Shown in pieces: positions 1 through 56,148 of a DNA stretch of 64,000 nt. The translations under genes and the position numbers were made by a program. The notes beneath the pieces were generated by a model. The model did no database searches and was not told where the DNA came from. It saw nothing but the letters and a program-made list of their open reading frames with translations. The stretch's first letter is position 1. Every line of letters begins with the position of its first letter. This DNA is from an uncultured bacterium (lineage in GTDB: Bacteria > Desulfobacterota_D > UBA1144 > Nemesobacterales > UBA2774), in contig CAVPJU010000003.1 of NCBI GenBank assembly GCA_963705505.1, positions 24,021-88,020 of the forward strand. The letters are read 5' to 3'.

Positions 1-1685
1 TGGCAATCCTTCTCCAGAGCCTGTGTGCACGCCTAGGCATCGTCGCCCGCCGCGATCTGGCTCAGGTAAACCGTGAAGAATACCCTACGTTCGTCAATAT
101 CCCGCTCTACCTCCTCGCAGAGATCGCCATCATCGCGTGCGACCTTGCGGAAGTCCTGGGCTCCGCAATCGCACTCAATCTGCTCTTCGGACTGCCGCTC
201 CTGTACGGCGTGCTGCTCACCGCTCTCGACGTATTGGTGCTCCTGATGCTGTCCCGGTTCGGCATCCGGAAGCTCGAAGCCGTAATTTTATCTTTGGTAA
301 CGACCATAAGCGTGTGTCTTCTTATCGAGATAGTGCTGGCGAAGCCCGAGTGGGGAGGGATTGTACGCGGGTTTGCTCCTTCCCTGCCTAATAAAGACGC
401 TCTGTATATTGCGATTGGTATTCTGGGCGCAACGGTTATGCCGCATAACCTTTACCTGCATTCATCTCTCGTACAGTCACGACGGATCGGAGACGACCGT
501 AAAAGCATAAAACAGGCGATCCGCTGGAACACGATAGACTCCGCTTTCGCCCTCAATATCGCCTTCTTCGTAAACGCTGCCATTCTTATCATGGCGGCTG
601 CGGTCTTCTATAAAAGCGGGCACTATGAAGTGGCGGAGATCAAGGACGCGCACCGTCTTCTGGAGCCTCTGCTCGGGGTGTCAATTGCACCAATCGCTTT
701 CGCCGTCGCTCTACTCGCTTCGGGGCAAAGCTCCACAATTACCGGGACCTTCGCCGGTCAGGTCGTCATGGAAGGGTATCTCAATCTCCGGATTCGTCCC
801 TGGCTCAGACGGTTAATCACTCGGCTTTTGGCAGTCCTGCCGGCCGCCCTGACGGTATGGTATTTCGGCGACAACTCCACGGGGTCCCTCCTCGTGCTCA
901 GTCAGGTGATGCTATCGTTACAGCTTCCTTTCGCCATTATCCCGCTCATCCATTTCGTATCCGATAAGCGCCGTATGGGTGAGTTCGCCTCTCCCCGCTG
1001 GCTAAGTTCACTTGCCTGGATTGCGGCGGCTGTTATCGTCTCACTCAATGTGAAGCTGGTCATGGATGAAATTCACGGCTGGCTCAGCGGCGCCGGAGAC
1101 CGTGCCTGGACGATTGGGCTCACCGTCGTACCTGTAAGCATTGCAGTCGGAATCCTCCTCATATATATAACTCTCCGTCCCTGGATACGGAAATTCAGGA
1201 TGCAGTGGGTGGGGGTGCACGGTCCTGCAGCAGCTCCCGATATCGAGCTTCCGACGATAGAACCCTACAGGCGCGTGGGGGTGGCCATCGATTTCTCCAG
1301 CGGAAGTATGAGACTCCTCGCGGAAGCGCAGCGCATGGCGCACAACGGCGGCACGAAGATATTTCTATTGCACGTGGTGGAAAGCCCCGCAGCGCTGGTC
1401 ATGGGGCAGGAGGCCGCCGATCAGGAGACACTGAGCGACCAGGGGCGGCTTGAGGAGCTCACACGGAAACTACGAAACATGGGATTTGATGCGGAATGGC
1501 GGTTAGGGACCGGGAACCCGGCTGCGGAGCTGGCGCGGATAATCAATGACCTCGACATCGATCTCGTGATCCTCGGCGGTCATGGTCATTCCGGCATCTC
1601 CGACATCATTCACGGTACGACGGTGGACAGTCTTCGCCACCAGATCCGCGCAAGCATCCTTGTTGTGCCGCTAAAGCAGGACTGA
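1..1685 (+). CDS. mntH: NRAMP-family divalent metal (Mn2+/Fe2+) transporter MntH with a C-terminal universal stress protein (UspA) domain. 5' partial: the reading frame is open from the window edge.
   Basis: Frame 3 is open from nt 3. Translation shows NRAMP hallmarks (GPG..., MPHNLYLHSS, 10-11 TM helices) followed by a roughly 140-aa UspA-like tail (VAIDFS..., HVVE, GGHGHSG...). There is no start codon in the window, so the gene begins upstream. Confidence 0.85.
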   Translation, partial: AILLQSLCARLGIVARRDLAQVNREEYPTFVNIPLYLLAEIAIIACDLAEVLGSAIALNLLFGLPLLYGVLLTALDVLVLLMLSRFGIRKLEAVILSLVTTISVCLLIEIVLAKPEWGGIVRGFAPSLPNKDALYIAIGILGATVMPHNLYLHSSLVQSRRIGDDRKSIKQAIRWNTIDSAFALNIAFFVNAAILIMAAAVFYKSGHYEVAEIKDAHRLLEPLLGVSIAPIAFAVALLASGQSSTITGTFAGQVVMEGYLNLRIRPWLRRLITRLLAVLPAALTVWYFGDNSTGSLLVLSQVMLSLQLPFAIIPLIHFVSDKRRMGEFASPRWLSSLAWIAAAVIVSLNVKLVMDEIHGWLSGAGDRAWTIGLTVVPVSIAVGILLIYITLRPWIRKFRMQWVGVHGPAAAPDIELPTIEPYRRVGVAIDFSSGSMRLLAEAQRMAHNGGTKIFLLHVVESPAALVMGQEAADQETLSDQGRLEELTRKLRNMGFDAEWRLGTGNPAAELARIINDLDIDLVILGGHGHSGISDIIHGTTVDSLRHQIRASILVVPLKQD

Positions 1686-8351: not shown

Positions 8352-9263
8352 ATGAACCACGTACTCATAATCCTCTTCTATAAATTTACCGACATAGCCG
8401 ACCCCGAGGGGTTCGCGGCAGGGCAGAGGGAGTTCTGCGAAAAAGAGGGGCTCCTGGGGAAGATACTCGTCGCCAGAGAGGGGATAAACGGCTCTTTTTC
8501 CGGATCACGGGAGCAGATAGAGGGCTATAAAATGTTCCTTACCGCCATACCGGGGTTCTCCGACATTACGTTCAAGGAAGAGAGCGCATCCGCGCACCCG
8601 TTCAAGAAGCTCATTATACGTGTCAAGAAAGAGATAATACGCATGGAGCAGGACCTCGACATGAGCAGGAGGGGCAAGTATATAACCCCTGAAGAGCTCA
8701 TCGCGCTCTATGAGAGCGGCGAGGACTTCATAGTACTCGACACGAGGAACAGATATGAATCGGAGGTAGGGAGGTTCAGGAACGCCGTAACCCCCGACAT
8801 AGATTCGTTCCGCGAATTCCCCGAAGCGCTTCAGAAACTGAGCGACAAAAAGAACAGGAAAATCGTGACCTACTGTACGGGCGGGATAAGGTGCGAGAAG
8901 GCCACCGCATACATGATAAGCCGCGGGTTCACGGACGTCTACCAGCTGAAGGACGGCATAATCAACTTCTGTCAGCAGTACCCGAATACGTTCTGGGAAG
9001 GGAAGTGCTTCGTATTCGACGAGCGGCTCGTCTCCGACATCGAAGCGGAGGGTGAAATTATTTCCCGCTGTATAGCGTGCGGGGAGAGCTCGGACCGCTA
9101 TCAGAACTGCAGAAACCCCTTGTGCGACGATCTGGTTATACTGTGCGGGAGATGCAGCGAAGAGCTTGGAGGCTGCTGTTCACGGGAATGCTCGAATGAC
9201 TACGAATCCTATATACTGAGGAAATCCCGCGAGAGGCAGGGGTACAAATCGAGAGCGGGCTGA
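8352..9263 (+). CDS. trhO: tRNA uridine(34) hydroxylase TrhO (rhodanese-domain protein, UPF0176/YceA family)
   Basis: N-terminal IL(F)YKF...EGINGS family block and a central rhodanese active-site loop C-TGGIRCEKA. The C-terminus is a Cys-rich zinc ribbon (CIACG...C...CDD). Confidence 0.8.
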   Translation: MNHVLIILFYKFTDIADPEGFAAGQREFCEKEGLLGKILVAREGINGSFSGSREQIEGYKMFLTAIPGFSDITFKEESASAHPFKKLIIRVKKEIIRMEQDLDMSRRGKYITPEELIALYESGEDFIVLDTRNRYESEVGRFRNAVTPDIDSFREFPEALQKLSDKKNRKIVTYCTGGIRCEKATAYMISRGFTDVYQLKDGIINFCQQYPNTFWEGKCFVFDERLVSDIEAEGEIISRCIACGESSDRYQNCRNPLCDDLVILCGRCSEELGGCCSRECSNDYESYILRKSRERQGYKSRAG

Positions 9264-9272
9264 TACGATTTA

Positions 9273-9362
9273 TCAGTCCTTGATATTCTTCGCCTTGAGA
9301 AGAAGAAGCAGCACGAAAGCCAGAAGGAACAGCGCATATAAAACGGGGGCAAGAAGCTCCAT
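9273..9362 (-). CDS. Possible 29-aa hydrophobic micro-protein (MELLAPVLYALFLLAFVLLLLLKAKNIKD)
   Basis: ATG preceded by a strong AGGAGGGAG Shine-Dalgarno, though the spacer is long (14 nt). One predicted TM helix with a basic C-terminus. The supplied ORF track has a 60-aa floor, so it is not listed there. Confidence 0.3.
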   Translation of the reverse strand: MELLAPVLYALFLLAFVLLLLLKAKNIKD

Positions 9363-9460
9363 ATCCGTTTAAATTACTCCCTCCTGTTTCAGATTTAAAA
9401 ACCTCGGGGACCCTTCGTGTCGTCTCCGGGCCCCCGTCGGAACCTTATTTCTTATCCCTA

Positions 9461-12400
9461 CTATTTATCTTTTTTCTTTCCCTTGGGTTTGGATTTCTTC
9501 GCGATAAAGTTCTTGAGCTCCGTCAGGTCAGACGCGAGGAGTTCCTTTACCCTCTCGCCGTTGACTCGGGCGACGATGATGTGCCCTATCTCCGTGTTGA
9601 CCTCCTCGTATATCCCTATGGCCTTCATACCCTGGGCCTGCTTCTGGTTATCCTCAGTCGGGCTCACATAGTGTATGGATCCGGCCTTATATCTGTGGAT
9701 AAGGAACAGATGGAGCAAAGCCATGAGCCTTTTCTGCCGGAACTTCTTGTCGAAAGTGTTCTGGTCCCTGATGGACACGAAGTTGTTTCCCCAGCGGTCG
9801 TGAATCGTTGCGAAAATCACGTCCGCCACCTTGTTTCCGACCTCATCGGCTACCGAAAGCTCCAGGAGCTCCGATCCTGCCGTATGCGGCCTCAGCTTTA
9901 CGCCCAGGCGTCCCGGTATGCCGTAGTGCTCGGACCAGAGCTCGAGCCAGTCCTCGAGTATCCTCGGCGGGACCTCCGTTTCGACCAGGTGCTGGACCTG
10001 TGTCGAGCCCTTGCCCATTGCGACCGTCGTCGCCGTACGGCCCGAAGAAGCGGCGAGCGCGCCGTCGAGACGCGGCCCTCCGACCAATGTCTGGGGCGTC
10101 CTGTAAGGGGAGTCGAGCAGCCTGAACTTCCTCTGGAGCCTCGCAAGGGCTAACATTCCGTCCTGCTTCAGCGCCGTCGCGAACTCCTCCGCGGCGAGCC
10201 CGTCTATCTGGTGTCCGCCGTAGGTGATAAAGTCGAATACGTAGCCGAGCTTCCCTATCTCTTTGGGGAAGTTCCTCATCTCTTCCTCGCTCATACCCGT
10301 CGTATCCCAGTTGAAGGAAGGAGACAGGTTGTAGGCGAGCATCTTGTCCGGGAACTCCGCGTGTATTGCCTCCGCGAATTCCCTCGCCTCTTCGTAGTTT
10401 GCAGTTTTAGTTTCCATCCATATCAGGTCGGCGTAAGGAGCGACGGCGAGCGATTTAGCGATGGCGTACTCTATTCCGCCCTTCACCTGATAATAGCCCT
10501 CGGGAGTCCTCGAAAGCTCGCAGTCCCATGGGGCTTCGATCCCCATCTGTTTCGCCCTGTCCCTCGCGTGCTGGTAGGAGGCGTGCTTCGCGAATTCGAA
10601 CCACTCCTCTATAGTCATCCCGAGGCTCCTGCCCTCTTCTATGGCGAACTCCATCTGCTCGGCGACCGCCTGGTCATAGGTCATAAGACCGGACTCCACT
10701 TCCCAGGTCTCGACGAACTTGCTGGCTGCGTTCTCGAGCGGCTTCGTGATACTCCTTTCCTTCCCTTCCTTGAGCGCCTGAATGCTCTTGTCTATTATGG
10801 GCGTGAGGCCTACCTTGTCGAACCAGGCATAAGCCTCCTCGTATTCGTCGTCCGATATTTTGTAGAGCATGAAGCCGTTCACATCGGTAATGCCCTTGTC
10901 ATAGAATCTTTTCAGGATTGCGAGATAACAGTTCTTATATCCGGGGAGGTTCGTATTCGTAGCCCCGAGTATGAACGGCTGATCGCGCTCGTCGCCTCGT
11001 CCGTCGAGCAGATTGGCTGCTTCGGCGTCAGTCCTCGCGACGATGATTCCGGGGACCTTCATTATGTCGAGCTGGAACCGGGCGGCGTTTAACCTCTTTA
11101 TCTGCTCGTCTACCGGAACGAGCGCCTTTCCGCCCTGATGGCCGCATTTTTTTGTGCCGGGCTTCTGGTCCTCAATGTGATACCCGGTCACGCCCGCTTC
11201 GACGAACCTCTTGATAAGGTTCCTTACGTGGGCGTCTCCGCCGTGGCCCGTATCGGCGTCAGCTATTATGAACGGCCTGTAATCGACCTTCGGCGTGGCC
11301 TTCCTCTCCTTCTCCGACATCCTCGACCTCATGAACTTCTGGTTCCGGTCGGCCGTGAGCAGGGCGCGGACAAGCCCCGCGGCTTCATCGGGCACCTGGC
11401 TCAGCGGATAGCTTGCGAGGTCGGGTCCCGGGTCCTCGGAGAACGAGCCCTTTGCGGAAGTCGCCCAGCCGCCGAGGTATACCCCTTCGATGCCGATTCG
11501 CTTCATCGCCACGATCTGTCCCGGCGAGTAGGGGCCGAATGTCGTTATCTGCTCGCCCCTGGCGAATAGCTCTCTCAGCCTGTTGTAGAATTCCTCGGAG
11601 TATTTTCTTGCAACCGAATGGTCCGTCTCCATCGTCCCCGCCTGCTGAACGACCTGACGGGCGGAGTAAAGACGCCTGATGCCCTTGAACCTCGGCTTCG
11701 CGAACCAGTCCTTCATTTCCCTGACTTCCCTCTCGAACGAATCGAGCTCGTCTTCGAGCGATGTGTCGAGGCGCGTGTCGGGCAGGAAGTCCAGGTTCTC
11801 CGTGATCCTGGTTCCGTCTTTCTTGAACGCGTCCATATACTGCTTTATCCTGATCTTTGCCGTTGATAGGTCGTGGTTGTTAAGGTTTATATTGAGCAGG
11901 TCTATGTACCAGGGCGTCTTTATGTTGTCGAGCACGTAAGTTTCCACTATCTCCCTCGCTATGGGGAGCGTAGTGGGCTTCGAGTCATCGTGGACGTCCT
12001 TGTCCTTTGCGGCGAGCAGCTTGTCGTATTCCTCGGCGAGGAGCCTTTCAAATAGATCGGACGTAAATATATCGCCCGCCTTGACCTCGGTCTCCTTATC
12101 GTCTTCCGTTAACACCGCCCCCTTGTCCACCCATTCCCAGAGGATGCTGAGGCGTATTTCGCCCGTGGCCATATCCTCCATCAAATATAGTATGTCGTCG
12201 TTGCCGAAGAAATCGGCTGGCTTCAAAGCCGCCGCCTGAAATCCCTGTCCGAATGCGTTCCCGTACTGAAGCGCGACCGACATGAGGTTCCTGGCCCCCC
12301 TTATAGTCCTGGGCGCGGGCTCGAGGAGTGTGAGACCTTCGGCGTCCTCATCCGTGTACGTGAGCGGCGGGAATTTTCTGCCCATCTGGTTTTCCTCTCC

Positions 12401-13708
12401 CGCTTCTTCCCATACCGGCCTTATTATGTGCACCATCTTCCAGTGCGCGACCCACTTTCCGCTTGCTCCCTCCTGCTGCTCCCTCTTCGCCCCCTCGACC
12501 GCCTTCTTCATGCCCTCTTTAACGCCCTTATCGGAGCCGACCGGGATGTTGGGCTCCATGCCGCCCTGCCATAGGGCGTAGTTGTGGTTGACGCTGGGAG
12601 TGTTGACAGCCCTCCTCACCCGGTCCTCGTAATTCCTCATATATCCGTATGTCATCGTTATCGATTCTATATTCGGGTTTATGAACGACTGGTCCCATGC
12701 CATGGCGTCCGATACGCTGTTTATGTAATCCCATCTGCCTGTATTGAATCCCGCGAAATGCCTGCCGAGCGCGGCGCGTATCTCCATAAGCTGGAATGTA
12801 GCCTCCAGCTGCTCGACGAGTACATATACCTTTATCGTGCCGAGAGGCAGGGTCAGGTGGTCCTCGAGCGCCGAAAGAAGCTCGTTCCAGAACGCGGCCT
12901 CCTCAGCCGTCTGTATCTTGGGCAGGTAGAGCACGACCGAAGAGCCGGTCTTATCGAGCTCCTGATAGTTGTTTACGACATAAAGAACGGTGTCCACGAT
13001 CGAAGCCGAAAGCATAAGACCGTTCTCGTCCCTTATGTGCCTGTCGTCCAGGTGAAGCCCCCTCGCGCGGAATATCTTTGTCGTGAACTCGAGCTGCTTT
13101 CTCCAGTCGAGAATTATTTCGTGTCCGAAAAACCCTTTCGCCCATTCGTTCATCTCCCGCGAGACCTGCTCCGCGACGTTCATGAATATGGGGTCTTTCC
13201 TTATAGCGAGTTTCAGGTTCCGCTGGTTCTCAAGCGACATCGTGTTTATCTGCCCGAGAGCGTCCTCGCCGTCGAACATCCAGCCGTCCGCCCCGGAGAG
13301 GAGCGCGTATGCCACATTCCTTATACTCTTATCAATTGAAGTGTTCGGCTTCGACGCGGGGCCCGTCCCCTGTATCCACTGCCTCTGGAGATCGTGCGGG
13401 ATATCGGATCCTACGAATTTACCGTCCCGTGCGTCCTGCACCTTTATATTAGTTCTCGGTATGAAATCATTGGGGTTGAGGAACCTTATTCTTTCCCTGT
13501 TGCGGAAGCGCTGCGCCCTCCTGGAGTACCTTTTTTCCATCAGCATTTTCTGGTCTTTGTTGAATACCGAAAGCGCTTTCAGGGCCTCTAACACCTGAGG
13601 TGTATATACGTCTGAAAACTCGCTTTCGAGGTTATTCCTTATCTGAAGAGTCCTCGGACCCGAAATAACCCTGAACGGCTGTTTTGAAATATCATGAACG
13701 GTGCTCAT
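9461..13708 (-). CDS. Fused malate synthase (N-terminal about 560 aa) and isocitrate lyase (C-terminal about 850 aa, ICL2-type with an extra C-terminal domain): a bifunctional glyoxylate-shunt enzyme in one 1415-aa polypeptide
   Basis: Uninterrupted ORF. The N-terminal half carries the malate synthase A signature [12 protein letters not shown] (compare GLNCGRWDYIFS). The C-terminal half carries the isocitrate lyase signature KKCGHQGGK, the ICL N-terminal block ([14 protein letters not shown]) and a long ICL2-like C-terminal extension. RBS AAGGAGAAGGAG lies upstream of the ATG at 13708. Confidence 0.85.
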
Positions 13709-13767
13709 GTGGCTCCTTCTCCTTACTTGGCGTTATTGCTTGCAAAATTTTAAAAAAGGGAACAATC

Positions 13768-13795
13768 ATTATAATGCAACCGACCTACAAATCAA
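13768..13795 (-). promoter_or_regulatory. Sigma70-type promoter for the malate synthase-ICL gene (TTGATT-N16-TATAAT on the minus strand)
   Basis: Minus strand reads TTGATT tgtaggtcggttgcat TATAAT. The -10 is the complement of 13768-13773 and the -35 is the complement of 13790-13795. This leaves a roughly 55-nt leader before the ATG at 13708. Confidence 0.45.
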
Positions 13796-13876
13796 ATAAA
13801 AACTCAATATCCTGCCGTATTCCTTAACAATTTTAATATACGGAAGTATTTCTGCAATAGAGCGGCACACGGTCTA

Positions 13877-13894
13877 ATTGTGCGAATGCACAAT
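13877..13894. promoter_or_regulatory. Palindromic candidate operator ATTGTGC-GAAT-GCACAAT, about 85 bp upstream of the -35 of the MS-ICL promoter
   Basis: Perfect 7-bp inverted arms around a 4-nt centre, inside a 780-bp AT-rich non-coding region. No other convincing gene is nearby. Confidence 0.3.
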
Positions 13895-14240
13895 ACATGC
13901 TCAGGTCATATGTTATAGTACCCTGCCCCTTATAAAAACATTTTACCCGTTTTTATGCCCTTGTGAATTGCCCGGCGATAATTTTTCAAAACCTTTAAAT
14001 AACAAGGTGTGTCCGGTTAATTTTACTGTTGTTTTATATAAAATGATTTTATTCCGCTTTAATTAAATCCAGGAGTTATAACTATATAGGACATTTATGA
14101 GCTCGCTAAGATACGCGCAGGCCGGGGACCTCGCGCTCGCGACGGTGATAGAGCTAATCCTCGTGCCCGTCTTCTACGCGATATTCGTGCTTGACCTCAA
14201 GATTATAAAATGGGGAAATAATAGCTAGATCGTGTGTGCG

Positions 14241-14378
14241 GCATTCGACCCTTCGACAGGCTCAGGGCGAACGGGTTTAAAAGATGAGACCCTAAAACGG
14301 GTTCAAGGCGACTAATCTTAATGAATGAAAGGTTACACCCCCATCCTAACCTTCCCCCTTTCTAAGGGGAAAGGAAAG
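14241..14378. repeat. Composite intergenic repeat: family-C unit (CCCTTCGACAGGCTC...) plus family-B hairpin unit (CCATCCTAACC + CCCCCTTTCTAAGGGGAAAGG)
   Basis: The family-C core CCCTTCGACAGGCTC recurs at 26604 and the family-B unit recurs at 22088, 32521 and 36698 (last copy inverted), all read directly from the sequence. Confidence 0.45.
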
Positions 14379-14484
14379 AATAATTGTCGTAGGAGACACA
14401 CAGTAATTATGGGAACAGACTATTTGTGTGAGCGCAGATTCTGCACCATAGATTGTGTGCACCTGATTCAGAAGAAGCTTTCTA

Positions 14485-15879
14485 TTATTTGAGCTCGTTC
14501 AGCTCTTTGGTTATGTTGCCCACTACGGCGCGGGCGTCGCCGAATACCATTATGGTCTTATCGTTAAAATAGAGCTCGTTCTCGATCCCCGCAAATCCCG
14601 GGTTCATGCTGCGCTTTATGACCATTATCTGCTTGGCCTTATCAACGTCGAGAATCGGCATTCCGTAAATGGGGCTCGCCGCGTCATGGCGCGCCGCCGG
14701 GTTCGTCACGTCGTTTGCGCCTATAACTAGCGCCACGTCCGCTTCCGGAAATTCGGGATTTATGTCGTCCATATCGAAAAGCACGTCGTAGGGCACGTTC
14801 GCTTCGGCAAGGAGCACGTTCATGTGCCCGGGCATCCTCCCCGCTACGGGATGTATCGCGTATTTGACGTCGGTGCCGCGCTCCTTGAGGATATCGGCCA
14901 TCTCTCTTACCCCGTGCTGAGCCTGCGCGGCCGCCATTCCGTATCCGGGGACGATTATGACCGATTTCGCCTTCGCGAATATCTCCGCGGCCTCTTTCGG
15001 CGTGCCGGAGCGGACGGTTTTAGCGCCTGCCTCTTCGGCAGGTACTGCGGCCCCGTCAGACGGCGTTATCTTTCCGAATGCGCCGAACAGCACGTTTGTG
15101 AAAGACCGGTTCATCGCCCTGCACATGATAATTGACAGTATGAAGCCCGAGGCGCCGTCGATCGCTCCGCCGATGATCAGGATTTTATTGTTAAGCGCGA
15201 AACCCAGAAGCGCCGCTGAAATACCGGCGTACGAGTTCAATATCGATATGACAGTCGGCATGTCCGCGGCTCCTATGGGCAGGATCAGCATCACGCCGAA
15301 CGTGAGGGCGAGGACAAGGCCGAGGTAGAAAAGGAAGCCGGTCGTGGGCACGAATACAAGGTAGATGACGATTAAGGCAATAACCCCGAGGAGGGATACG
15401 TTAAAAATGTTCTGGCCTTTATACGTCCAGGGCGCTCCCGGCAGGATGCCCTGTAATTTTCCGAAGGCCATCATGCTTCCGGTGAACGTCAGGCTCCCGA
15501 GCATGACCTCCGAGCCTATGGAAGTCATTCTCACCGTATTGAGGTCCTGGCCGTGGTAATATTCCGCGATCCCGACCAGGGCCGCAGCGAGAGCTCCGAA
15601 CGCATGCGATAACGCGGTTCGTTCGGGCATCTTCGTCATCGGAGTCCATGCCGCGATACCTATACCGGCTATAGAGCCTATGATAAGGCCGACGACGATC
15701 CACTCGTAGCTTATTATTTCACTCTGTATGAGGGTCCCGATAATGGCCATGGTCATTCCGAGGGCGGCGAGTTTCTGGCCGCGCCTGGCCGTTTCGGGCG
15801 AGTTCAGACCCTTGAGTCCGAGGATGAACAGTATGGCTGATATGAGATATATTAGGTTAGTAAAAATATGGCTCGTCAT
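14485..15879 (-). CDS. pntB: NAD(P) transhydrogenase subunit beta (PntB)
   Basis: 464 aa with N-terminal TM helices and a C-terminal NADP(H)-binding domain. Typical PntB blocks are present (GYGMAAAQAQH, AIHPVAGRMPGHMNVLLAEA). Its start overlaps the pntAB stop in an ATGA arrangement. Confidence 0.9.
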   Translation of the reverse strand: MTSHIFTNLIYLISAILFILGLKGLNSPETARRGQKLAALGMTMAIIGTLIQSEIISYEWIVVGLIIGSIAGIGIAAWTPMTKMPERTALSHAFGALAAALVGIAEYYHGQDLNTVRMTSIGSEVMLGSLTFTGSMMAFGKLQGILPGAPWTYKGQNIFNVSLLGVIALIVIYLVFVPTTGFLFYLGLVLALTFGVMLILPIGAADMPTVISILNSYAGISAALLGFALNNKILIIGGAIDGASGFILSIIMCRAMNRSFTNVLFGAFGKITPSDGAAVPAEEAGAKTVRSGTPKEAAEIFAKAKSVIIVPGYGMAAAQAQHGVREMADILKERGTDVKYAIHPVAGRMPGHMNVLLAEANVPYDVLFDMDDINPEFPEADVALVIGANDVTNPAARHDAASPIYGMPILDVDKAKQIMVIKRSMNPGFAGIENELYFNDKTIMVFGDARAVVGNITKELNELK

Positions 15880-16178
15880 TTCTGGCTCTTGTCATCACCT
15901 TTTTTAAACATTTTCAGCATACGCTCCGTGATCAAAAATCCGCCGACTACGTTACACATCGCACAGGCAACGGCGACGGTTCCGAGTACGGTAACGACCG
16001 TGCCGTGCTTACTTCCCGCAATGAGGATCGCCGCGACTACGGAGATTGCGGATATGGCATTGGTAGCCGACATGAGCGGGGTATGGAGGAGCGGGGGCAC
16101 ACGCGATATAACGATAAATCCTAAAAATGCTGCAAGAATGAATATATACAATCCCGCGACTAATAGTGCTGAATCCAT
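15876..16178 (-). CDS. pntAB: NAD(P) transhydrogenase subunit alpha part 2 (PntAB; small membrane subunit)
   Basis: 100 aa with three TM helices, lying between pntAA and pntB in the usual three-gene split arrangement. RBS AAGGAG is upstream. Confidence 0.85.
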   Translation of the reverse strand: MDSALLVAGLYIFILAAFLGFIVISRVPPLLHTPLMSATNAISAISVVAAILIAGSKHGTVVTVLGTVAVACAMCNVVGGFLITERMLKMFKKGDDKSQK

Positions 16179-16197
16179 GAGACGGTATCTCCTTTCT

Positions 16198-17331
16198 TTA
16201 TTTCACGGCTTCTTTTATGGCCGGATGCACGATCTGTCCCCCGTGAGTTATCAGCGAACCCTTAATTATATCGTCCGCGAGGTCGATATTAGCGGACTTC
16301 CCGTCAGGCGATATCAGGTTTAAAAACGCGAGTATATTCCTCGCGTAGAGCACGCTCGCGTGGACAGGCATGTTGCTCGGAATATTGTAGAAGCCTATTA
16401 TCGTTACGCCGTGTTTCACTGCTTCCTTACCGGGCTCGGAAAGCGCGCAGTTACCCCCCTGCTCCACCGCCATGTCCACGATGACTGAGCCGGGCTTCAT
16501 CTCTTTAACCATCTCTTCCGTGATAAGTATCGGGGCGCGTTTTCCGGGGATGAGCGCCGTTGTGATAATGACGTCCGCGTCCTTGGAATGCTTGCGGATC
16601 AGCTCCTGCTCGTTTTTATAAAACTCGGGCGACAGCTCTTTCGCGTAACCCCCCACGTCCTCCGCCTGCTCATGAGGGACCTCGAGGGATACGAATTCAG
16701 CGCCCAGGCTCTTTACCTGCTCTCCCGCCGCCGGCCTTACGTCAAACGCGGTCACGACTGCTCCCAAACGCTTGGCGGTAGCGATCGCCTGAAGCCCTGC
16801 AACGCCCGCTCCTATGATGATTACCCTCGCAGGGTGTATCGTTCCCGCAGCCGTGGAGAGCATAGGAAAAAACCTGCCGCACGCGTTTGCCGCCATCAGG
16901 ACGACTTTATAACCGGCGACGGTGCTCATGGTGGAGAGTGCGTCCATGCGCTGAGCGCGCGTTATCCTCGGGACCATTTCCATGGATAAGGAGCTGATAT
17001 TGTGCTCGGCGAGCTTCTTTACGACATCAGGGCTCGAAAAAGGCTGTAGAAAAGATATGACGACGGCCCCGGGTTTCATATGGCCTATCTCGTCGGTCGT
17101 TGGCTTATTCACCTTGAGGAGCACATCGGCATCCGAGAGCACCGCGTCCCTGCCGGGGGCGATCTTCGCTCCGGATTCCTCTAATTCTCGGTCGCTGATG
17201 AAAGCCGCCTCACCAGCTCCCGCCTCGATTACCACCTCCATTCCCGCCTTCGTCATCTTGCCGACGGTCTCGGGGACGGCGGCGATCCGGCGCTCACCTT
17301 CCAATGACTCTTTAATTACTCCGACTCGCAC
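16198..17331 (-). CDS. pntAA: NAD(P) transhydrogenase subunit alpha part 1 (PntAA; AlaDH/PNT domain with NAD(H)-binding Rossmann fold)
   Basis: Rossmann motif IIGAGVAGLQA and AlaDH/PNT N-terminal domain. I prefer the GTG at 17331 because GGAGA lies 5 nt upstream; the ORF-track start at 17343 is also a GTG. Confidence 0.85.
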   Translation of the reverse strand: MRVGVIKESLEGERRIAAVPETVGKMTKAGMEVVIEAGAGEAAFISDRELEESGAKIAPGRDAVLSDADVLLKVNKPTTDEIGHMKPGAVVISFLQPFSSPDVVKKLAEHNISSLSMEMVPRITRAQRMDALSTMSTVAGYKVVLMAANACGRFFPMLSTAAGTIHPARVIIIGAGVAGLQAIATAKRLGAVVTAFDVRPAAGEQVKSLGAEFVSLEVPHEQAEDVGGYAKELSPEFYKNEQELIRKHSKDADVIITTALIPGKRAPILITEEMVKEMKPGSVIVDMAVEQGGNCALSEPGKEAVKHGVTIIGFYNIPSNMPVHASVLYARNILAFLNLISPDGKSANIDLADDIIKGSLITHGGQIVHPAIKEAVK

Positions 17332-17596
17332 TAGTATCTCCACTCAGGATAAAAATCAGCGGCTTCAAATTACCTAACCTTCAATCCGCCGTCAATACCT
17401 GATATATATAATATAATCAGACACCAGATCCAAGCCCTATTTCTACGTTCCAAAAACCCAATGCTTTATGATTCTATTAGTATTTTCCAATCAGTCAAGT
17501 TTAGGAGTCCTATATGATTAAAATTAAATCTTGAGGGTCCCGGCGAGACGTATTACGAATCACGCGAAACCGCGCAGGGCCGGAGCCGCGAAGCGG

Positions 17597-42047: not shown

Positions 42048-43454
42048 ATGGCCAGTAAAAATACGAGAACAGAATACGATTCGATGGGGGAGATGGAAGT
42101 CCCCTCAAGCGCATATTACGGCGCCCAGACGGCGAGGGCGATAGAGAATTTCCCCATCAGCGGCATACGCAAGCACGCCCTGCTCGTGAAGGCGATGGGG
42201 ATGATAAAGCTCGCCGGCGCGGAGGCCAACATGGAGCTCGGTCTCCTGAGCAAGAAGACAGGCAGCGCGATAGTGAGGGCGGCAAAGGAGGTCATCGACG
42301 GGAAGCTCGACGACCACTTCATCCTCGACGTTTTCCAGACGGGGTCCGGCACGTCCACCAACATGAACACGAACGAAGTGATAGCCAACCGCGCGAACGA
42401 AATAATCGGGGGCAGGAAAGGAGACAAGTCGGGTATCCATCCGAACGACCACGTTAACATGGGACAGTCGAGTAACGACGTTTACCCGACGGCGATACAC
42501 GTCTCGGCGATCCTCGCGATAAACGAGATACTCATGCCCGCGCTCAAGAACCTCGAGAAGGCGCTTTCAGCAAAGGCGCGCGAGTTCAACAAGATAGTCA
42601 AGATCGGACGCACGCACCTCCAGGACGCTACCCCCATCAGGCTCGGCCAGGAGTTCAGCGGCTACGCGAGCATGATAACGCACGGCATCAGGAGAGTGGA
42701 GCACGCGAGGGAAGAGCTGTCAGAGCTCGCGATAGGCGGCACCGCTGTCGGCACCGGGATCAACACGCATCCGAAATTCGCCGGGCTCGTCGTGAAGAGG
42801 CTCAGCAAAATGACGGGGACGAAGCTGAGGGAGGCGGAGAACCATTTCGAGGCCCAGGGATCCAAGGACGCCGTAGTCGAGGCGAGCGGGTCTCTCAAGA
42901 CCCTCGCCGTGAGCCTCATGAAGATAGCGAACGATATAAGGTGGCTCGGGAGCGGCCCGCGCTGCGGGATAGGGGAGATAATGATTCCTGCCGTCCAGCC
43001 GGGCTCGTCGATCATGCCGGGGAAGGTGAACCCCGTCATACCCGAAGCCGTGTGCCAGGTGGCGGCGCAGGTCATAGGGAACGACCTCACGATTACCATA
43101 GGCGGACAGTTCGGGAACTTCGAGCTAAACGTCATGATGCCGGTGAAGGGGCACAACCTTCTCCAGTCCATAGAGCTCCTGGGCAAGGTCTCTCAGGTAT
43201 TCACCGACAAGTGCGTGAAGGGTATAAAGGCCGACAGGAAGCGCTGCGAGGAGATGATAGAGAAGAGCCTCGCCATGTGCACGAGCCTGGCGCCCGTCAT
43301 CGGATACGATAGCGCCGCCAAGATAGCGAAGGAGGCCTACGAGACGGGCAAGACCGTGAGGCAGGTCGCTCTCGAGAAGAAGGTGCTCCCGGCTGAGAAG
43401 CTGAAGCAGCTCCTCGACCCCTGGTCTATGACGGAGCCCGGGACAAAGAAGTAG
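42048..43454 (+). CDS. aspA: Aspartate ammonia-lyase (aspartase)
   Basis: RBS AAGGAGGAG. Contains the fumarase/aspartase signature GSSIMPGKVNP. The N-terminal and internal blocks (AYYGAQTARAIENFPISG, NMNTNEVIANRANEI, GRTHLQDATPIRLGQEF) match E. coli AspA more closely than FumC. Confidence 0.75.
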   Translation: MASKNTRTEYDSMGEMEVPSSAYYGAQTARAIENFPISGIRKHALLVKAMGMIKLAGAEANMELGLLSKKTGSAIVRAAKEVIDGKLDDHFILDVFQTGSGTSTNMNTNEVIANRANEIIGGRKGDKSGIHPNDHVNMGQSSNDVYPTAIHVSAILAINEILMPALKNLEKALSAKAREFNKIVKIGRTHLQDATPIRLGQEFSGYASMITHGIRRVEHAREELSELAIGGTAVGTGINTHPKFAGLVVKRLSKMTGTKLREAENHFEAQGSKDAVVEASGSLKTLAVSLMKIANDIRWLGSGPRCGIGEIMIPAVQPGSSIMPGKVNPVIPEAVCQVAAQVIGNDLTITIGGQFGNFELNVMMPVKGHNLLQSIELLGKVSQVFTDKCVKGIKADRKRCEEMIEKSLAMCTSLAPVIGYDSAAKIAKEAYETGKTVRQVALEKKVLPAEKLKQLLDPWSMTEPGTKK

Positions 43455-51882: not shown

Positions 51883-54800
51883 TCAGGAGACGTCGCCTGA
51901 TACCTTCTTTCCGCAGAATTCACAGAGGAGCTCGAGATTGGTTTTCACTATTTCGTGGGGACCGGGATAGGATTTTTTTGTAAACACCTTCAAGGCTTCC
52001 TGATAGGCTTCGGCAGCCTTGTCGCTATTCCGCGAGCGGTCTTCCTCCTCGGCGAGGGTCGTATACGCGCCGCCTATATTATTCTCCGTGGTCGCGTACT
52101 GGATGGGGAATTTATCGACCGTGTAGACGATGAGGGCCGTCTCATAGGCGTTGATCGCCCTCTTGCAGTTCTTTGCCCTCTCCTCGACTTCGGAAAGCAT
52201 CCTGTACACGACTCCCAGGTTATTCTGCGTCGCCGCGAACTGCAGCGGGTAGCTCTGGATCGTCCTCACCTTGAGCGCCTTTTCGAACGTCTTCACGGCC
52301 ATCTTGCAGTTGGCCTCTTTTTCCTCGACGTCCGCAAGCGTCATGTAGGCAGTACCGAGGTTATTCTTCGTGGAGCCGAACTGGACGGGGTGCTCCTTTT
52401 CGTTGTATACCCTGAACGCCTCCCTGTAGGAATTCACGGCCCTCTTGCAGTTCTTCCCCTTCTCCTCGACCTCGGCGAGAGTCCTGTAAACTATGCCAAG
52501 GTTGTTCTGTGTCGCGGCGTACTCGAGCGGGTATTCCTTGAGGTTATACACTTTGAGCACGCGCTCGAAAGATCTTACGCCCTTCTTCAAATACTCCGCC
52601 GCTTCCCCTGTCTCGGCCAGACGCTTATACAGGGTCCCGAGGCTGCTCAGTATGGACGCGTATTCCACGGGCATCCGCTCGCACGTATAGTATTTGAGCG
52701 CCTCCTCAAACGACTCCGCCGCGGCTTTGAAGCTCTCGGGGTCGCCTGAATTTTCAGAAATGCTCTCAAAGGCGGCCGCGATATTCTTCCGGATGAGCCC
52801 GTAGTCCTGCGGCGAGTTTTCAAAAGTAATAACGGCCAGCGCCTTTTCGTATGCGTCTATCGCCTTTCCGTAATACTCCGTCTGCCCCTTCTTGCGGGCA
52901 ATATTGCCGTAGGCTATGCCCATGTACTTATTTATTTCGGCGAAATCAAACGGAGAGGTCTCGCGGCCATATCCGCCGAGCGCTTTCGTGAACGCATCCA
53001 CCGCCAGGAAATTATCGTCGGCGCGCTCCTCGACCTCGGCGAGGACACCGTAAGCGAACCCTATATGCTTCTCTATCCGGCAGTGCTTGGACAGGTGCTG
53101 CGCGGGATCGAAAACACCGAGCGCTTCGGTGTATGCGCCGATCGCCTTTTTATACTCCCCCGGATGACCTTTTATCTCCGCAAGCGCGCGGTATATGTTG
53201 CCCGTGCTCTCCTTAATCGCGCCGAACTCGAGTGGGGATTTTTCCTTCGTGAGCACACGTAAAGCCTCGTTATACGCACCGATAGCCCGTTCATAGCTCT
53301 TGACGTCACCCGATTTCTCGGCAATATGCGTGCATGAAGACGCGATGCCGCTTTGTGTCGCCGCATACTCCTCGGGGGACTCTTCAAACGAATAGAATTT
53401 GAGAGCGTCTTCGTAAGATTTCAACGCCTTTCTGAAATTATTCTGAACCCCGCTGGTCATCCCCAGCTCCTCATACGCTCTGCCGAGACCCAGCTTCAGT
53501 GATGCGTACAGGAGAGGCGATTCCCCGGACGAGTCATGCTTTAAGCTCTCTTCGTAGTACTCCACAGCCTCTTCGGGGTTATCGAATTCGACTTCCCGGG
53601 AGAGGGTTATAATATCCGCCTCTTCACCGGGCGCGCTCCCGCACTCTTCTGTCTGCGCCGGCTCCGACCCGGTTTCGTATTCGTCATGCTTTACGATTTT
53701 CAGCAGAGGGCGCTCTCTATCTTTTTCGGGCTCTTCAACTGCGGACTGAAATTCATTAGCTTCGTCTGTTTCAGCGGTCCCGGCCTCATCATTCCCGGAC
53801 ATTAAGCCCCGCACGTTCCCGAGGCTTTCCATAACCTCTCCATATTCACGGGGAAACTCATCAGGGGTAAAAACCCTGAGCGCCTCCTCAAACGCGTGAA
53901 CGGCGCTCTCCATGCTCCCTGGTTCATCCGGAGCCGCGAGGATTTCCGAATAGAGCTTCCCGATCTCGCTCTGGATCCCGGCGTATTCGGACGGATGATC
54001 GGAAATATTAAAAATCCCGAGCGCGTGCTTATACGCTTCGACCGCCTTCCCCGCGTTGATAAGCGGCTCTTCAACCCTGCTCAGAGCGGCGTAAGCGGAG
54101 CCCAGCCGCTTCCGTATGACCGCGTGCTCGAGCGGGAAAAGCCCTGCAGTATGGTAGTTGAGCGCTTCCTGATAACATCCTATCTTTTTATTGATGTCCC
54201 ACGCCTCTACATCTCCGAGCTCACTTAAGAGCCCCCCCAGAAGCCCGTATAGCTCCTTCCGCTTATCCGCGCACGGTTCATCGGTGAAGAAGGAGAGGGC
54301 TTCCTTATAAGAATCTACGGCAAGCTCAATATTGACCGCCCTCTCGTCCGTTATGCTCCCGTAAAAATCGCCGATCCTCCTGTGGGCTTCCGCGTACTCG
54401 GCCGGGAAATCGAGCGGGTCATAGAGACTGAGTAGCCCTCTATAGCTCACGGCCGCTCCCTCGCGGTCTCCCGAGCTCTCGAGCGATTCGGCAAGCGCCG
54501 TATACAATGCACCGAGAGAGCGGGTGATATCCATATATTCCTCCTCCCTCTCACGGCCGCAGCACTCCAGCGCTTCGGAATAAGCGACTATAGCCTTCCT
54601 CAGGTCATCGACACCGCCTCTTTCTCTGTAGAGCCTTTCGAATACTTCTCCAAGCTTTCTACCATTAGCCGAGTGCTCCCTTCGGGCGATTTCCTCGGGA
54701 TAGTGCATGAGCGCCTCGTCGTAGTATTCGATCGCCTTTTCCGGATCGTTCGATTCAGCCTGCATATCGCCGAGCGCCTTGAGCACATCCCCGATTCTGA

Positions 54801-56148
54801 TGTTAACTATTCTCGAATCCTCTGCGGCGCTTTCGCGAGTGTAGATGCTTAATGATTCCTCATAAGCATTCAACGCTTCCTCGTAGACAGCCCTGTCGCC
54901 GTTAGCGCGGGCGAGCGACTCGTAAGCATCGCCGAGCCTCATTTTCATAAGCGCATACTCGGCCGGTGAATTCTCAAGCAGTCCGCAGGAAAGAGATTCC
55001 AGAAAAGACTCCACTGCCTGCCTCCCGTACTCACGCTCCCCAGTCAGGGAGAAGAGAGCGCCGAGCGCGACCCCGAGGTTATTGCGGACTGCGGCAAACT
55101 CGCGGGGGTACCTGTCGGCCCTGAAGAACCCGAGGACCTCTTTATAGATACCTGCGGCTCTCTCAATATTATCCTTCTCATCCTGTGAAAACGAATAGCG
55201 TATGAGCGTGTCGGCAAGCTTCTTTCCCATTATGGCCGCGAGTAATCCGGGTTTTTCCCGCCCGAGTATCCTTTCGTAGACCCCGGCGCACTTCCCTGAA
55301 TACCGACGCAGAACGTCGGTGTCGTCCTCCGATTCCAGGAGTCCCGAATAGAGGGACGCGAGACAGCTGAGGATCCGTGAAGGGACCTGCCTGCCCGTCT
55401 TCGATTCCCATGCGTCGAGCTCTTCGTATAATTCGTCAACGTCGGCGAAGCCGAAATCGTTCCGCGATGTGCAGTATCCGGACACCCTGAGCGCGGCATT
55501 CCGCAAGCTGCCGGCGTCTTCCGGACGCGGAATCTCGACGGTATTGAGACAATCGTTGATATAGCTCTCCATGATCCCGGGGAGAGCTTGCTCTAATCTT
55601 TTCATTATCGGATTTTCGGGGGATTCGCCGTGCTCGACACCGGCTGGGGGTCCGAGGTCTATGCTTTCCTGCAAATGACCGTTCAGAACTTTTTCGTAGT
55701 AAAAGCGTGCCGAATCCAACACACGCCCGGTTTCCGGCTCAAAGGAAGTTTTGGAATCTCCGTTCCGGTTTATCTCCCCGTCCGCTCCGTTTGACGAGCA
55801 TTTTCTTCCGAGAGTGAGGATAATTTTTCCACCGCCCCTCAGAAACCCGAATTCATAAAACTCGTCAGGGCCCAGTCCGTCGAGTATAAGGACACCGAGC
55901 AGACATTCCCTGGCAAGCTCTTCGAAACGATCGATGTATTGTCCGTTCAGAAAGGCGTAATCGGAGAGTAAATTGACCTGAATACCTTTTTGGAGGAGAT
56001 AATTCCTGAGGGGGTCGAGAATATCGCGGATGTCGCCGGCATTGCTCCCTGACCCGTGCAGAACGACGCACGTGAGCTCACTCCCGGCACTGATAAGCCC
56101 GCAGATTTTCCTTGTTCCCGTTAACCCGGACTGAGTCCTGCCTGACAT
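51883..56148 (-). CDS. Giant (1421 aa) cytoplasmic tetratricopeptide-like repeat protein with an uncharacterised roughly 130-aa N-terminal alpha/beta domain (possibly TIR/Rossmann-like)
   Basis: RBS GAGGGG. About 25 tandem 40-42-aa repeats with the recurring pattern EYA.TQNNLG.VYR.LAEVEE...NC..A...Y.EAL.VYT. The N-terminal domain (CVVLHGSGSNAGDIRDILDPLRNYLLQKGIQVNLLSDYAFLNG...) matches nothing I can name. No NTPase motif is visible. Confidence 0.7.
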   Translation of the reverse strand: MSGRTQSGLTGTRKICGLISAGSELTCVVLHGSGSNAGDIRDILDPLRNYLLQKGIQVNLLSDYAFLNGQYIDRFEELARECLLGVLILDGLGPDEFYEFGFLRGGGKIILTLGRKCSSNGADGEINRNGDSKTSFEPETGRVLDSARFYYEKVLNGHLQESIDLGPPAGVEHGESPENPIMKRLEQALPGIMESYINDCLNTVEIPRPEDAGSLRNAALRVSGYCTSRNDFGFADVDELYEELDAWESKTGRQVPSRILSCLASLYSGLLESEDDTDVLRRYSGKCAGVYERILGREKPGLLAAIMGKKLADTLIRYSFSQDEKDNIERAAGIYKEVLGFFRADRYPREFAAVRNNLGVALGALFSLTGEREYGRQAVESFLESLSCGLLENSPAEYALMKMRLGDAYESLARANGDRAVYEEALNAYEESLSIYTRESAAEDSRIVNIRIGDVLKALGDMQAESNDPEKAIEYYDEALMHYPEEIARREHSANGRKLGEVFERLYRERGGVDDLRKAIVAYSEALECCGREREEEYMDITRSLGALYTALAESLESSGDREGAAVSYRGLLSLYDPLDFPAEYAEAHRRIGDFYGSITDERAVNIELAVDSYKEALSFFTDEPCADKRKELYGLLGGLLSELGDVEAWDINKKIGCYQEALNYHTAGLFPLEHAVIRKRLGSAYAALSRVEEPLINAGKAVEAYKHALGIFNISDHPSEYAGIQSEIGKLYSEILAAPDEPGSMESAVHAFEEALRVFTPDEFPREYGEVMESLGNVRGLMSGNDEAGTAETDEANEFQSAVEEPEKDRERPLLKIVKHDEYETGSEPAQTEECGSAPGEEADIITLSREVEFDNPEEAVEYYEESLKHDSSGESPLLYASLKLGLGRAYEELGMTSGVQNNFRKALKSYEDALKFYSFEESPEEYAATQSGIASSCTHIAEKSGDVKSYERAIGAYNEALRVLTKEKSPLEFGAIKESTGNIYRALAEIKGHPGEYKKAIGAYTEALGVFDPAQHLSKHCRIEKHIGFAYGVLAEVEERADDNFLAVDAFTKALGGYGRETSPFDFAEINKYMGIAYGNIARKKGQTEYYGKAIDAYEKALAVITFENSPQDYGLIRKNIAAAFESISENSGDPESFKAAAESFEEALKYYTCERMPVEYASILSSLGTLYKRLAETGEAAEYLKKGVRSFERVLKVYNLKEYPLEYAATQNNLGIVYRTLAEVEEKGKNCKRAVNSYREAFRVYNEKEHPVQFGSTKNNLGTAYMTLADVEEKEANCKMAVKTFEKALKVRTIQSYPLQFAATQNNLGVVYRMLSEVEERAKNCKRAINAYETALIVYTVDKFPIQYATTENNIGGAYTTLAEEEDRSRNSDKAAEAYQEALKVFTKKSYPGPHEIVKTNLELLCEFCGKKVSGDVS

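Follow-up and report, generated by a model that had tools for sequence, protein, structure and literature searches.

We analysed a 64,000-nucleotide (nt) stretch of contig CAVPJU010000003.1 from an uncultured bacterium, referred to here as the window, which carries on its minus strand a gene that joins a malate synthase (MS) to an isocitrate lyase (ICL) of the ICL2 type. The fusion gene is a single uninterrupted open reading frame (ORF) at 9461..13708 that starts with ATG, spans 4248 nt including the stop codon, and encodes a protein of 1415 amino acids (aa). A reading made from the sequence alone, without database searches, had announced an uninterrupted ORF of this length, and the ORF lies exactly where that reading, which named no strand, placed it. 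By its profile and structure matches, the protein is a divergent, long A-like malate synthase followed by a linker, an ICL2 catalytic domain with a helical insertion, and a GNAT-like domain. The parts of the gene, with the evidence for each, are as follows.

9461..13708, minus strand: the complete fusion gene, encoding MS, linker, ICL2 catalytic domain and GNAT-like C-terminal domain, 1415 aa (ORF with Pfam, NCBIfam and PDB matches)
11786..13708, minus strand: malate synthase half, aa 1-641 (PF01274, PF20659, TIGR01344, alignment to 3cux/3cuz, Foldseek)
11738..11785, minus strand: linker, aa 642-657, 16 aa, acidic (comparison with split relatives; predicted local distance difference test score (pLDDT) <50 at aa 642-652)
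10013..11737, minus strand: isocitrate lyase catalytic domain, aa 658-1232 (PF00463, TIGR01346, match to 6edw)
10505..10957, minus strand: helical insertion in the ICL domain, ~aa 918-1068 (split Pfam ICL match, colinear 6edw alignment, residue mapping)
9494..9976, minus strand: GNAT-like C-terminal regulatory domain, aa 1245-1405 (8g8k match, 172 bits; gapless alignment to Mycobacterium tuberculosis (Mtb) ICL2)

Domains and conserved residues of the fusion protein

The N-terminal half matches the Pfam family MS_TIM-barrel (PF01274) at aa 212-441 with 154.1 bits against a cutoff of 26.4, and MS_C (PF20659) at aa 506-571 with 32 bits against a cutoff of 23.1. A PDB search aligned aa 30-533 to malate synthase A of Bacillus anthracis (3cux, 147 bits), and Foldseek, run with the AlphaFold model of this half, gave a match to Escherichia coli malate synthase A (3cv2_B) with an E value of 1.1e-18, a TM score of 0.73 and 21% identity. 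The half has the fold of malate synthase A (AceB; E. coli 3CUZ/3CV2, B. anthracis 3CUX), a TIM barrel with a C-terminal plug, and its catalytic Arg, Glu and two Asp residues sit in the motifs known from that enzyme. In the alignment to 3cux and to 3cuz from E. coli, the catalytic and Mg2+ residues R214/R216, E299, D327 and D512 fall in RxRGxHL, E(T/Q)L, GRWDY and MEDxAT, respectively, and all of them are invariant in 121 of 121 relatives. We take the E. coli counterparts to be R166, E250, D278 and D447. Compared with malate synthase A, its C-terminal region is longer and extra stretches are inserted near aa 74-84, 118-127, 172-200 and 496-506; a conserved 10-residue segment, aa 632-641, closes the half. 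In the loci examined, and unlike malate synthase A, this MS never occurs without ICL2 as its partner. Every sequence feature tested places the half in the malate synthase superfamily.

The remainder of the protein matches the Pfam ICL family PF00463 with 432.1 bits (cutoff 26) in two stretches, the first of which is aa 661-925, and the NCBIfam model TIGR01346 (isocitrate lyase) with 457.2 bits, above the cutoff of 275.9. PF01274 and PF00463, the two families that the sequence-only reading had proposed as a check on the two parts, are both found over their cutoffs, and both motifs that it quoted occur: GRWDYINS spans aa 324-331 and KKCGHQGGK aa 853-861. The latter contains the active-site loop K853-K-C855-G-H857. 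This KKCGH loop and the acidic Mg2+ ligands D817, D819, E846 and D847 are invariant in 121 of 121 relatives, and W748 and R892 of the ICL domain are likewise invariant. The best PDB match is Mtb ICL2, 6edw, to whose chain residues 27-785 aa 644-1405 align with 1142 bits; in the Foldseek comparison of the AlphaFold model, the ICL part is 66-68% identical to Mtb ICL2 chains in the catalytic part. Residues were mapped from Mtb ICL2 to the fusion protein with an offset of +640, anchored on KKCGH (Mtb 213-217 = aa 853-857).

The 6edw alignment runs colinear through the helical insertion, and the model is helical across aa ~920-1070. The insertion corresponds to the "unique helical substructure" (UHS) of Mtb ICL2 (residues 278-428) and of eukaryotic ICLs, and the insertion region, aa 926-1075, is the least conserved part of the ICL domain among the 121 relatives. 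The C-terminal domain, aa 1233-1405, aligns to Mtb ICL2 residues 593-765 with no gaps (194 bits, 54% identity), and the isolated Mtb ICL2 C-terminal domain, 8g8k, matches aa 1245-1405 with 172 bits. In Mtb ICL2, this domain binds acetyl-CoA or propionyl-CoA, which activates the enzyme (PMC6788997; PMC13102942), and the loop 635-642 touches the catalytic domain in the activated state (PMC13102942). The corresponding interaction loop with the N-terminal domain, A-G-S-E-L-L at aa 1277-1282 (within Mtb 635-642), is nearly invariant among the relatives, as are R1324, K1326, R1327 and L1328 of the R-x-K-R-L motif (Mtb R684/K686/R687/L688). Mtb R608, which forms a salt bridge linking the C-terminal domain to the UHS, is replaced by P1248 in the fusion protein, with an Arg one position on.

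The fusion protein resembles Mtb ICL2 in its KKCGH loop, in having the large helical insertion, and in its GNAT-like C-terminal domain. At 766 aa, Mtb ICL2 is an enzyme on its own, whereas the fusion protein adds a 641-aa MS at the N-terminus, which in relatives can be encoded immediately upstream instead. On every sequence feature tested, the lyase part belongs to the isocitrate lyases and to their ICL2-type (Group III) class, and the 6edw and 8g8k matches uphold the view, already taken from the sequence alone, that a full ICL2-type lyase with its extra C-terminal domain is present. The protein ends in a lysine-rich tail, aa 1404-1415 (9464-9499), which lies outside the region homologous to Mtb ICL2 and is absent or different in many relatives; the alignment block of the 121 relatives contains 38% gaps there.

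Conservation is high across both halves, and all catalytic residues checked are invariant in the 121 family members. In comparison with three other species, the ratio of nonsynonymous to synonymous substitution rates (dN/dS) is ~0.04 in MS, ~0.03 in ICL and ~0.08 in the C-terminal domain, and it rises to 0.15-0.30 in the 16-codon linker; the dS values, 0.75-0.97, are near saturation. The MS, the ICL and the C-terminal domain are all under purifying selection. One database entry (P0001) is 100% identical to the fusion protein, and another, from a different contig, is 98% identical.

Fused and split states of the gene pair

In a search of 5.8 billion proteins, clustered at 90% identity, at least 190 clusters of fused proteins of 1366-1428 aa share the four Pfam domains of the fusion protein. 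They include proteins from contigs of up to 8.8 Mb and from the cultured Planctomycetes Bythopirellula polymerisocia and Aeoliella straminimaris, and their source annotations read "isocitrate lyase/PEP mutase family protein", "Isocitrate lyase 2" or "Malate synthase A". An exhaustive phmmer search whose query was just the MS half retrieved 310 representatives at E <= 1e-30, among them a stand-alone MS of 634 aa that is 73% identical. A scan of the GTDB species representatives yielded at least 585 confirmed stretches, of which the best 80 loci were used for locus comparisons. These 80 come from Candidatus Dadabacteria, other Thermodesulfobacteriota, bacterium HR37, Calditrichota, Krumholzibacteriia, four classes of Acidobacteriota, Nitrospirales, Planctomycetota, Gemmatimonadota, Myxococcota, Bdellovibrionota, Bacteroidota, Ignavibacteriaceae, Spirochaetia, Verrucomicrobiota and Actinomycetota. 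The closest loci among the matches listed are in metagenome-assembled genomes (MAGs) of Dadabacteria/Thermodesulfobacteriota, at 93-94% identity, from which we assign the window to this group.

Among these best 80 loci, MS and ICL2 form one fused ORF in 32 of 78, and in the other 46 they are separate, adjacent and co-directional genes. The search for the same fusion in related genomes, which the sequence-only reading had suggested, is thus positive both at the level of loci (32 fused) and at that of protein clusters. Split loci encode a long MS of ~631 aa and an ICL2 of ~750-780 aa; Conexibacter sp. S30A1 (NZ_CP097127, L043) has such a pair. The split MS ends right after the conserved segment (...ITENLDF; aa 632-641 here), and the split ICL2 begins with M-x-x-FE-x-EV...WF..PRF at ~aa 657 here. 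The spacers between the two genes are 0-90 nt long, the stop and start codons overlap in some loci, and in many the two genes share a reading frame, with just one stop codon plus a few codons lying between them.

The MS-ICL junction of the fusion gene is at nt 11738-11785 (aa 642-657), and not near nt 12000 as estimated from the sequence alone. The linker stands precisely where split relatives have a stop codon, a short spacer bearing a ribosome-binding site (RBS), and a start codon. It is predicted to be disordered, with pLDDT <50 at residues 598-608 of the AlphaFold model, equivalent to aa 642-652. Linker sequence varies among the fused clades and so does linker length, from 16-17 aa, acidic, in the Dadabacteria-type proteins to ~10-12 aa in Holophagae/Planctomycetes and up to ~30 aa elsewhere. 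The same 16-aa linker, with conservative substitutions, is found in independent assemblies of at least 10 related species (loci L001-L005, L025, L027, L058, L060 and L011), and the junction is nearly gap-free in the alignment of the 121 family members.

A neighbour-joining tree of the concatenated proteins has at least seven changes between the fused and split states, and its topology departs from the organismal phylogeny; the tree is midpoint-rooted and without support values, and we take it as indicative only. MAGs labelled Dadabacteria carry either the split form (L012, L066, L076) or the fused form (L001-L004, L011) and fall in different clades of the gene tree, where Acidobacteriota and Planctomycetota are similarly scattered. 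This scatter points to horizontal transfer of the module. Pairwise distances of the MS half and of the ICL half co-vary (r = 0.70; none of 999 Mantel permutations reached this r), and neighbour clustering in 79 loci found no other neighbour conserved across phyla; the TrhO gene and the RND efflux operon recur next to the fusion only within Dadabacteria synteny. Because the halves co-vary, no other neighbour is conserved and the state has switched at least seven times, the unit of inheritance is the MS+ICL2 pair, which is horizontally mobile and has repeatedly been fused or split. The fusion is one state of a widespread mobile two-gene module, and it is in this that it is newly recognised.

The MS type and an ICL are also embedded together in giant proteins of 1950-4828 aa, P0145, P0131, P0128, P0125 and P0126 from Candidatus Omnitrophota and P0240 from Chlamydiota, which are predictions from MAGs and may be either real multi-enzyme polypeptides or merged gene calls. 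P0145 combines ICL, triosephosphate isomerase, class II aldolase, MS and GAPDH, P0125 combines ICL, MS and HEAT repeats, and P0131 is colinear with the fusion protein through the MS-ICL junction. A eukaryotic origin, considered for these matches of 2,000-4,800 aa, was wrong; they are Omnitrophota and Chlamydiota MAG proteins. As a separate observation, two loci have defects that may be pseudogenes or assembly errors: in L061 (~11491) the MS frame is broken just past the MEDMAT motif, and in L047 (~11878-12128) the first ~80 residues of ICL2 are missing, in frame, from its ORF.

Signals and genes around the fusion gene

Four candidate expression signals flank the gene.

13768..13795, minus strand: proximal sigma-70-like promoter, TTGATT-N16-TATAAT (10/12 consensus matches, which is not proof of function)
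13713..13724, minus strand: Shine-Dalgarno sequence AAGGAGAAGGAG, 4 nt upstream of the ATG at 13708
13910..13984, minus strand: distal conserved block of ~75 nt that hardly varies among four species (positions 27-101 of the first sequence in the upstream alignment) and lies ~200 nt upstream of the ATG
9405-9436, then UUUUU at 9398-9402, minus strand: terminator-like G+C-rich hairpin, low confidence, 25 nt past the stop codon

The promoter and RBS named in the sequence-only reading are present at 13795-13768 and 13724-13713, and three other species (L001, L002 and L058) have exactly the same two hexamers and RBS; overall identity across the upstream region is 84%. Promoter-like sites are not significantly enriched in the region (6 found against 3.5 +/- 2.0 in shuffles), and TTGATT-N16-TATAAT is best described as a conserved consensus match, which is no proof of expression. 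The claim that the gene looks expressed and is no assembly chimera stands, with conserved consensus signals for its first part and recurrence in independent assemblies for its second. The distal block holds a second promoter-like site, TTCACA-N16-TAAAAT (13967-13940), again with 10/12 matches, and could be a second promoter or the binding site of a regulator. A palindrome upstream of the fusion gene, TTGTGC-N4-GCACAA, was dropped because it is not conserved in L001, L002 and L058. At the other end of the gene, the hairpin has a 9-bp stem in the minimum free energy and centroid structures alike, with a weak z-score of only -1.67; the consensus terminator scan does not list it, its loop being too long for that scan. 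Rfam gave no match at E <= 1 in 9200-14600, which covers the upstream intergenic region and the gene.

Upstream and on the same strand are pntA/pntB (14485-17343), separated from the fusion gene by an intergenic region of 776 nt, and downstream there is a convergent gene for a TrhO-like rhodanese (8352-9263). The intergenic region contains a remnant of an RND-type efflux pump gene, namely of its 3' end, at 14106-14213 on the plus strand within a small ORF (14097-14228). In L005 a pump of 1208 aa is encoded upstream of the fusion gene, and the remnant matches aa 1168-1203 of that pump with 86% identity; related Dadabacteria loci have a whole efflux operon upstream of the fusion gene. The operon seems to have been deleted in the window, with pntAB now lying beyond. 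A class II fumarase is encoded at 42048-43454, and no glyoxylate-shunt gene besides the fusion gene was found in the 64-kb window. Elsewhere in the window are genes for a 1421-aa TPR-repeat protein (51883-56148, minus strand), an 825-aa HEAT-repeat protein (57373-59850, plus strand), and an Nramp-type metal transporter to which a C-terminal universal stress protein domain is fused (210-1685, plus strand).

Proposed function, alternatives and known relatives

Taken as a whole, the data are best explained by a bifunctional, acetyl-CoA-gated glyoxylate-shunt enzyme that arose from a mobile MS+ICL2 module, an explanation that we consider probable. The ICL2-type domain would cleave isocitrate to succinate and glyoxylate, and the N-terminal MS domain would combine the glyoxylate with acetyl-CoA to give malate. 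By analogy with Mtb ICL2, the protein most likely forms a tetramer via the ICL core, with four MS domains tethered N-terminally by short disordered linkers, and its four GNAT-like domains would bind acetyl-CoA or propionyl-CoA and thereby switch the lyase on. Because acetyl-CoA is also the co-substrate of the attached MS, glyoxylate would be made only when the co-substrate for its removal is present, and by a lyase in fixed 1:1 ratio with the enzyme that consumes it. Proximity of the two active sites, or channelling between them, might bring a kinetic benefit. The fusions would have originated repeatedly, through loss of the stop codon and the short spacer between two translationally coupled genes.

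Several points weigh against this explanation. The MS half scores 229.9 bits with TIGR01344, the malate synthase A equivalog (match over aa 36-594), below the cutoff of 594.5, and it is ~100 aa longer than malate synthase A. Because of the score, we class it as a divergent A-like malate synthase and not as a canonical AceB; the label "malate synthase A-like" in the sequence-only reading fits the fold and the catalytic residues but does not convey this divergence. On account of both the score and the extra length, the acyl-CoA or 2-oxoacid specificity of the half could differ. We found no activity data in the literature for any bacterial member of the family, and our view of the genome is the 64-kb window, in which the rest of the cycle was checked no further than the fumarase. 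The AlphaFold model of aa 45-1244, which is of a monomer whereas the protein is probably tetrameric, has a mean pLDDT of 74.5 and a predicted template modelling score (pTM) of 0.51, with no confident arrangement of MS relative to ICL. A fixed MS-ICL interface or tunnel, which we considered, finds no support in this monomer model with its disordered linker. Finally, the split state in 46 of 78 loci and the seven or more switches mean that covalent fusion is evidently not required. Since the linker is predicted to be disordered, the pTM is low and the fused and split states switch freely, glyoxylate channelling in the strict sense has no specific support.

These last observations lead to the alternative that both enzymes are active and the covalent fusion is near-neutral, providing 1:1 co-expression only, with neither channelling nor communication between domains. 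A coupled two-gene operon already comes close to 1:1 co-expression, the split loci outnumber the fused ones (46 to 32), and the gene tree has at least seven changes of state. In the many split loci whose genes share a frame and are parted by one stop codon and a few codons, one mutation is enough to toggle the state. The linkers differ among clades in length and sequence and evolve faster, and that of the fusion protein is predicted to be disordered, in a model with a pTM of 0.51. Against this alternative, the Dadabacteria-type linker is fixed at 16-17 aa, acidic, with dN/dS below 1, the junction is almost ungapped across the family, and the order MS-then-ICL and the junction are kept even within giant Omnitrophota proteins. 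We consider a near-neutral fusion a serious possibility, although on balance an unlikely one.

Much less probable, in our judgement, is that the N-terminal domain is a related Claisen-condensing enzyme with another substrate, for example propionyl-CoA or a different acyl-CoA, or some 2-oxoacid in place of glyoxylate, so that the module would serve a non-classical pathway, for example one tied to the methylisocitrate lyase activity known from Mtb ICL2. The shortfall against TIGR01344 would fit such an enzyme, as would scores of only ~22-25 bits with the NCBIfam MS G models, the 21% identity to E. coli malate synthase A, and the several insertions and longer C-terminal region; Mtb ICL2 itself also cleaves methylisocitrate and is activated by propionyl-CoA (PMC6788997). 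However, the catalytic and Mg2+ positions and the surrounding MS motifs are all kept and invariant, MS_TIM-barrel and MS_C score well over their Pfam cutoffs, and in the genome the domain is obligatorily paired with an isocitrate lyase, which produces glyoxylate. We attach practically no weight to the idea that a lost stop codon or a collapsed indel merged two neighbouring genes in this assembly. Very little sequence separates the split and fused states, and the source is a metagenome-type assembly, but the 16-aa linker recurs in the independent assemblies of at least 10 related species, the 100% identical database entry is accompanied by the 98% identical one on a different contig, and purifying selection reaches through the linker. 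With at least 190 clusters of like proteins in addition, an assembly chimera or read-through artefact is ruled out, and a bifunctional, gated enzyme from a mobile module remains our preferred explanation.

The order of domains recalls the MS/ICL of Euglena gracilis (Nakazawa 2005), in which, as in the fusion protein, an N-terminal MS and a C-terminal ICL place two consecutive reactions in one chain. Relatives of the Euglena protein occur in Acanthamoeba, chrysophytes and a kinetoplastid, and one paper states that a fusion of this type was reported from those eukaryotes only (PMC8219788, 2021). Unlike the fusion protein, the Euglena-type enzymes are eukaryotic and mitochondrial. ICL-1 of Caenorhabditis elegans also carries both glyoxylate-cycle activities in one polypeptide, but in the reversed order (ICL-MS) and without a GNAT-like regulatory domain; its ICL is of the short, proteobacterial type and its MS of the Bacillus type (PMC1630690). 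The orders that the sequence-only reading gave, MS-ICL in Euglena and ICL-MS in nematodes, agree with this literature (PMC1630690, PMC8219788).

The sequence-only reading also knew of no characterised bacterial example. We likewise found no biochemical characterisation of any bacterial MS-ICL fusion in the literature, but the novelty is lower than this suggests, since a fusion from Anaeromyxobacter was mentioned in 2006 and 2016. Kondrashov et al. 2006 listed a gene fusion in Anaeromyxobacter dehalogenans; its ICL falls into one group with Mycobacterium ICL2 and with the eukaryotic type that bears the insertion. Henry et al. 2016 give the ICL/MS fusion of Anaeromyxobacter sp. Fw109-5 (fig|404589.10.peg.3099) as an example of a fusion around a reactive intermediate. 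This fusion is bacterial, contains both enzymes, and shows the ICL2-like grouping; it is known from computational mention only. It very probably belongs to the same family as the fusion protein. A homology search started from a myxobacterial member gave no match named as Anaeromyxobacter, and the locus set contains one fused myxobacterial member, L045 (Archangiaceae). The family was thus already visible in databases and, through Anaeromyxobacter, noted computationally. What appears to be new is a widespread mobile module, MS+ICL2, that toggles from one state to the other, fused or split, and an ICL2 with a putative acetyl-CoA-sensing-type domain outside mycobacteria. ICL2-type (Group III) isocitrate lyases have been stated to be known only from mycobacteria (PMC13102942, 2026). 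Because the MS-ICL2 family, as judged from its sequences, occurs in more than a dozen bacterial phyla, both that statement and the restriction of MS/ICL fusions to a few protists are too narrow.

A further-reaching view, which we regard as doubtful, is that the MS+ICL2 pair, whether fused or split, is an obligate allosterically gated complex. Acetyl-CoA on the GNAT-like domain would then open the lyase only when the tethered MS can use the glyoxylate, which would make the pair a self-contained glyoxylate shunt under feed-forward control. On this view the ICL2-type enzymes could have their ancestral home in the widespread bacterial module and would not be a peculiarity of mycobacteria. From the same bacterial module could also stem the "eukaryotic-type" ICL with its insertion, as well as the fused MS/ICL proteins of Euglena, Acanthamoeba and chrysophytes.

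The current understanding of the glyoxylate shunt is not overturned by these findings. A lyase that in most lineages is coupled, physically or genetically, to a detoxifying enzyme in need of acetyl-CoA would offer a simple rationale for the acetyl-CoA sensor of ICL2, and the cultured Planctomycetes provide tractable fused representatives. The repeated interconversion of fused and split forms amounts to a natural experiment on the kinetic benefit, if any, of fusing consecutive enzymes around a reactive intermediate.

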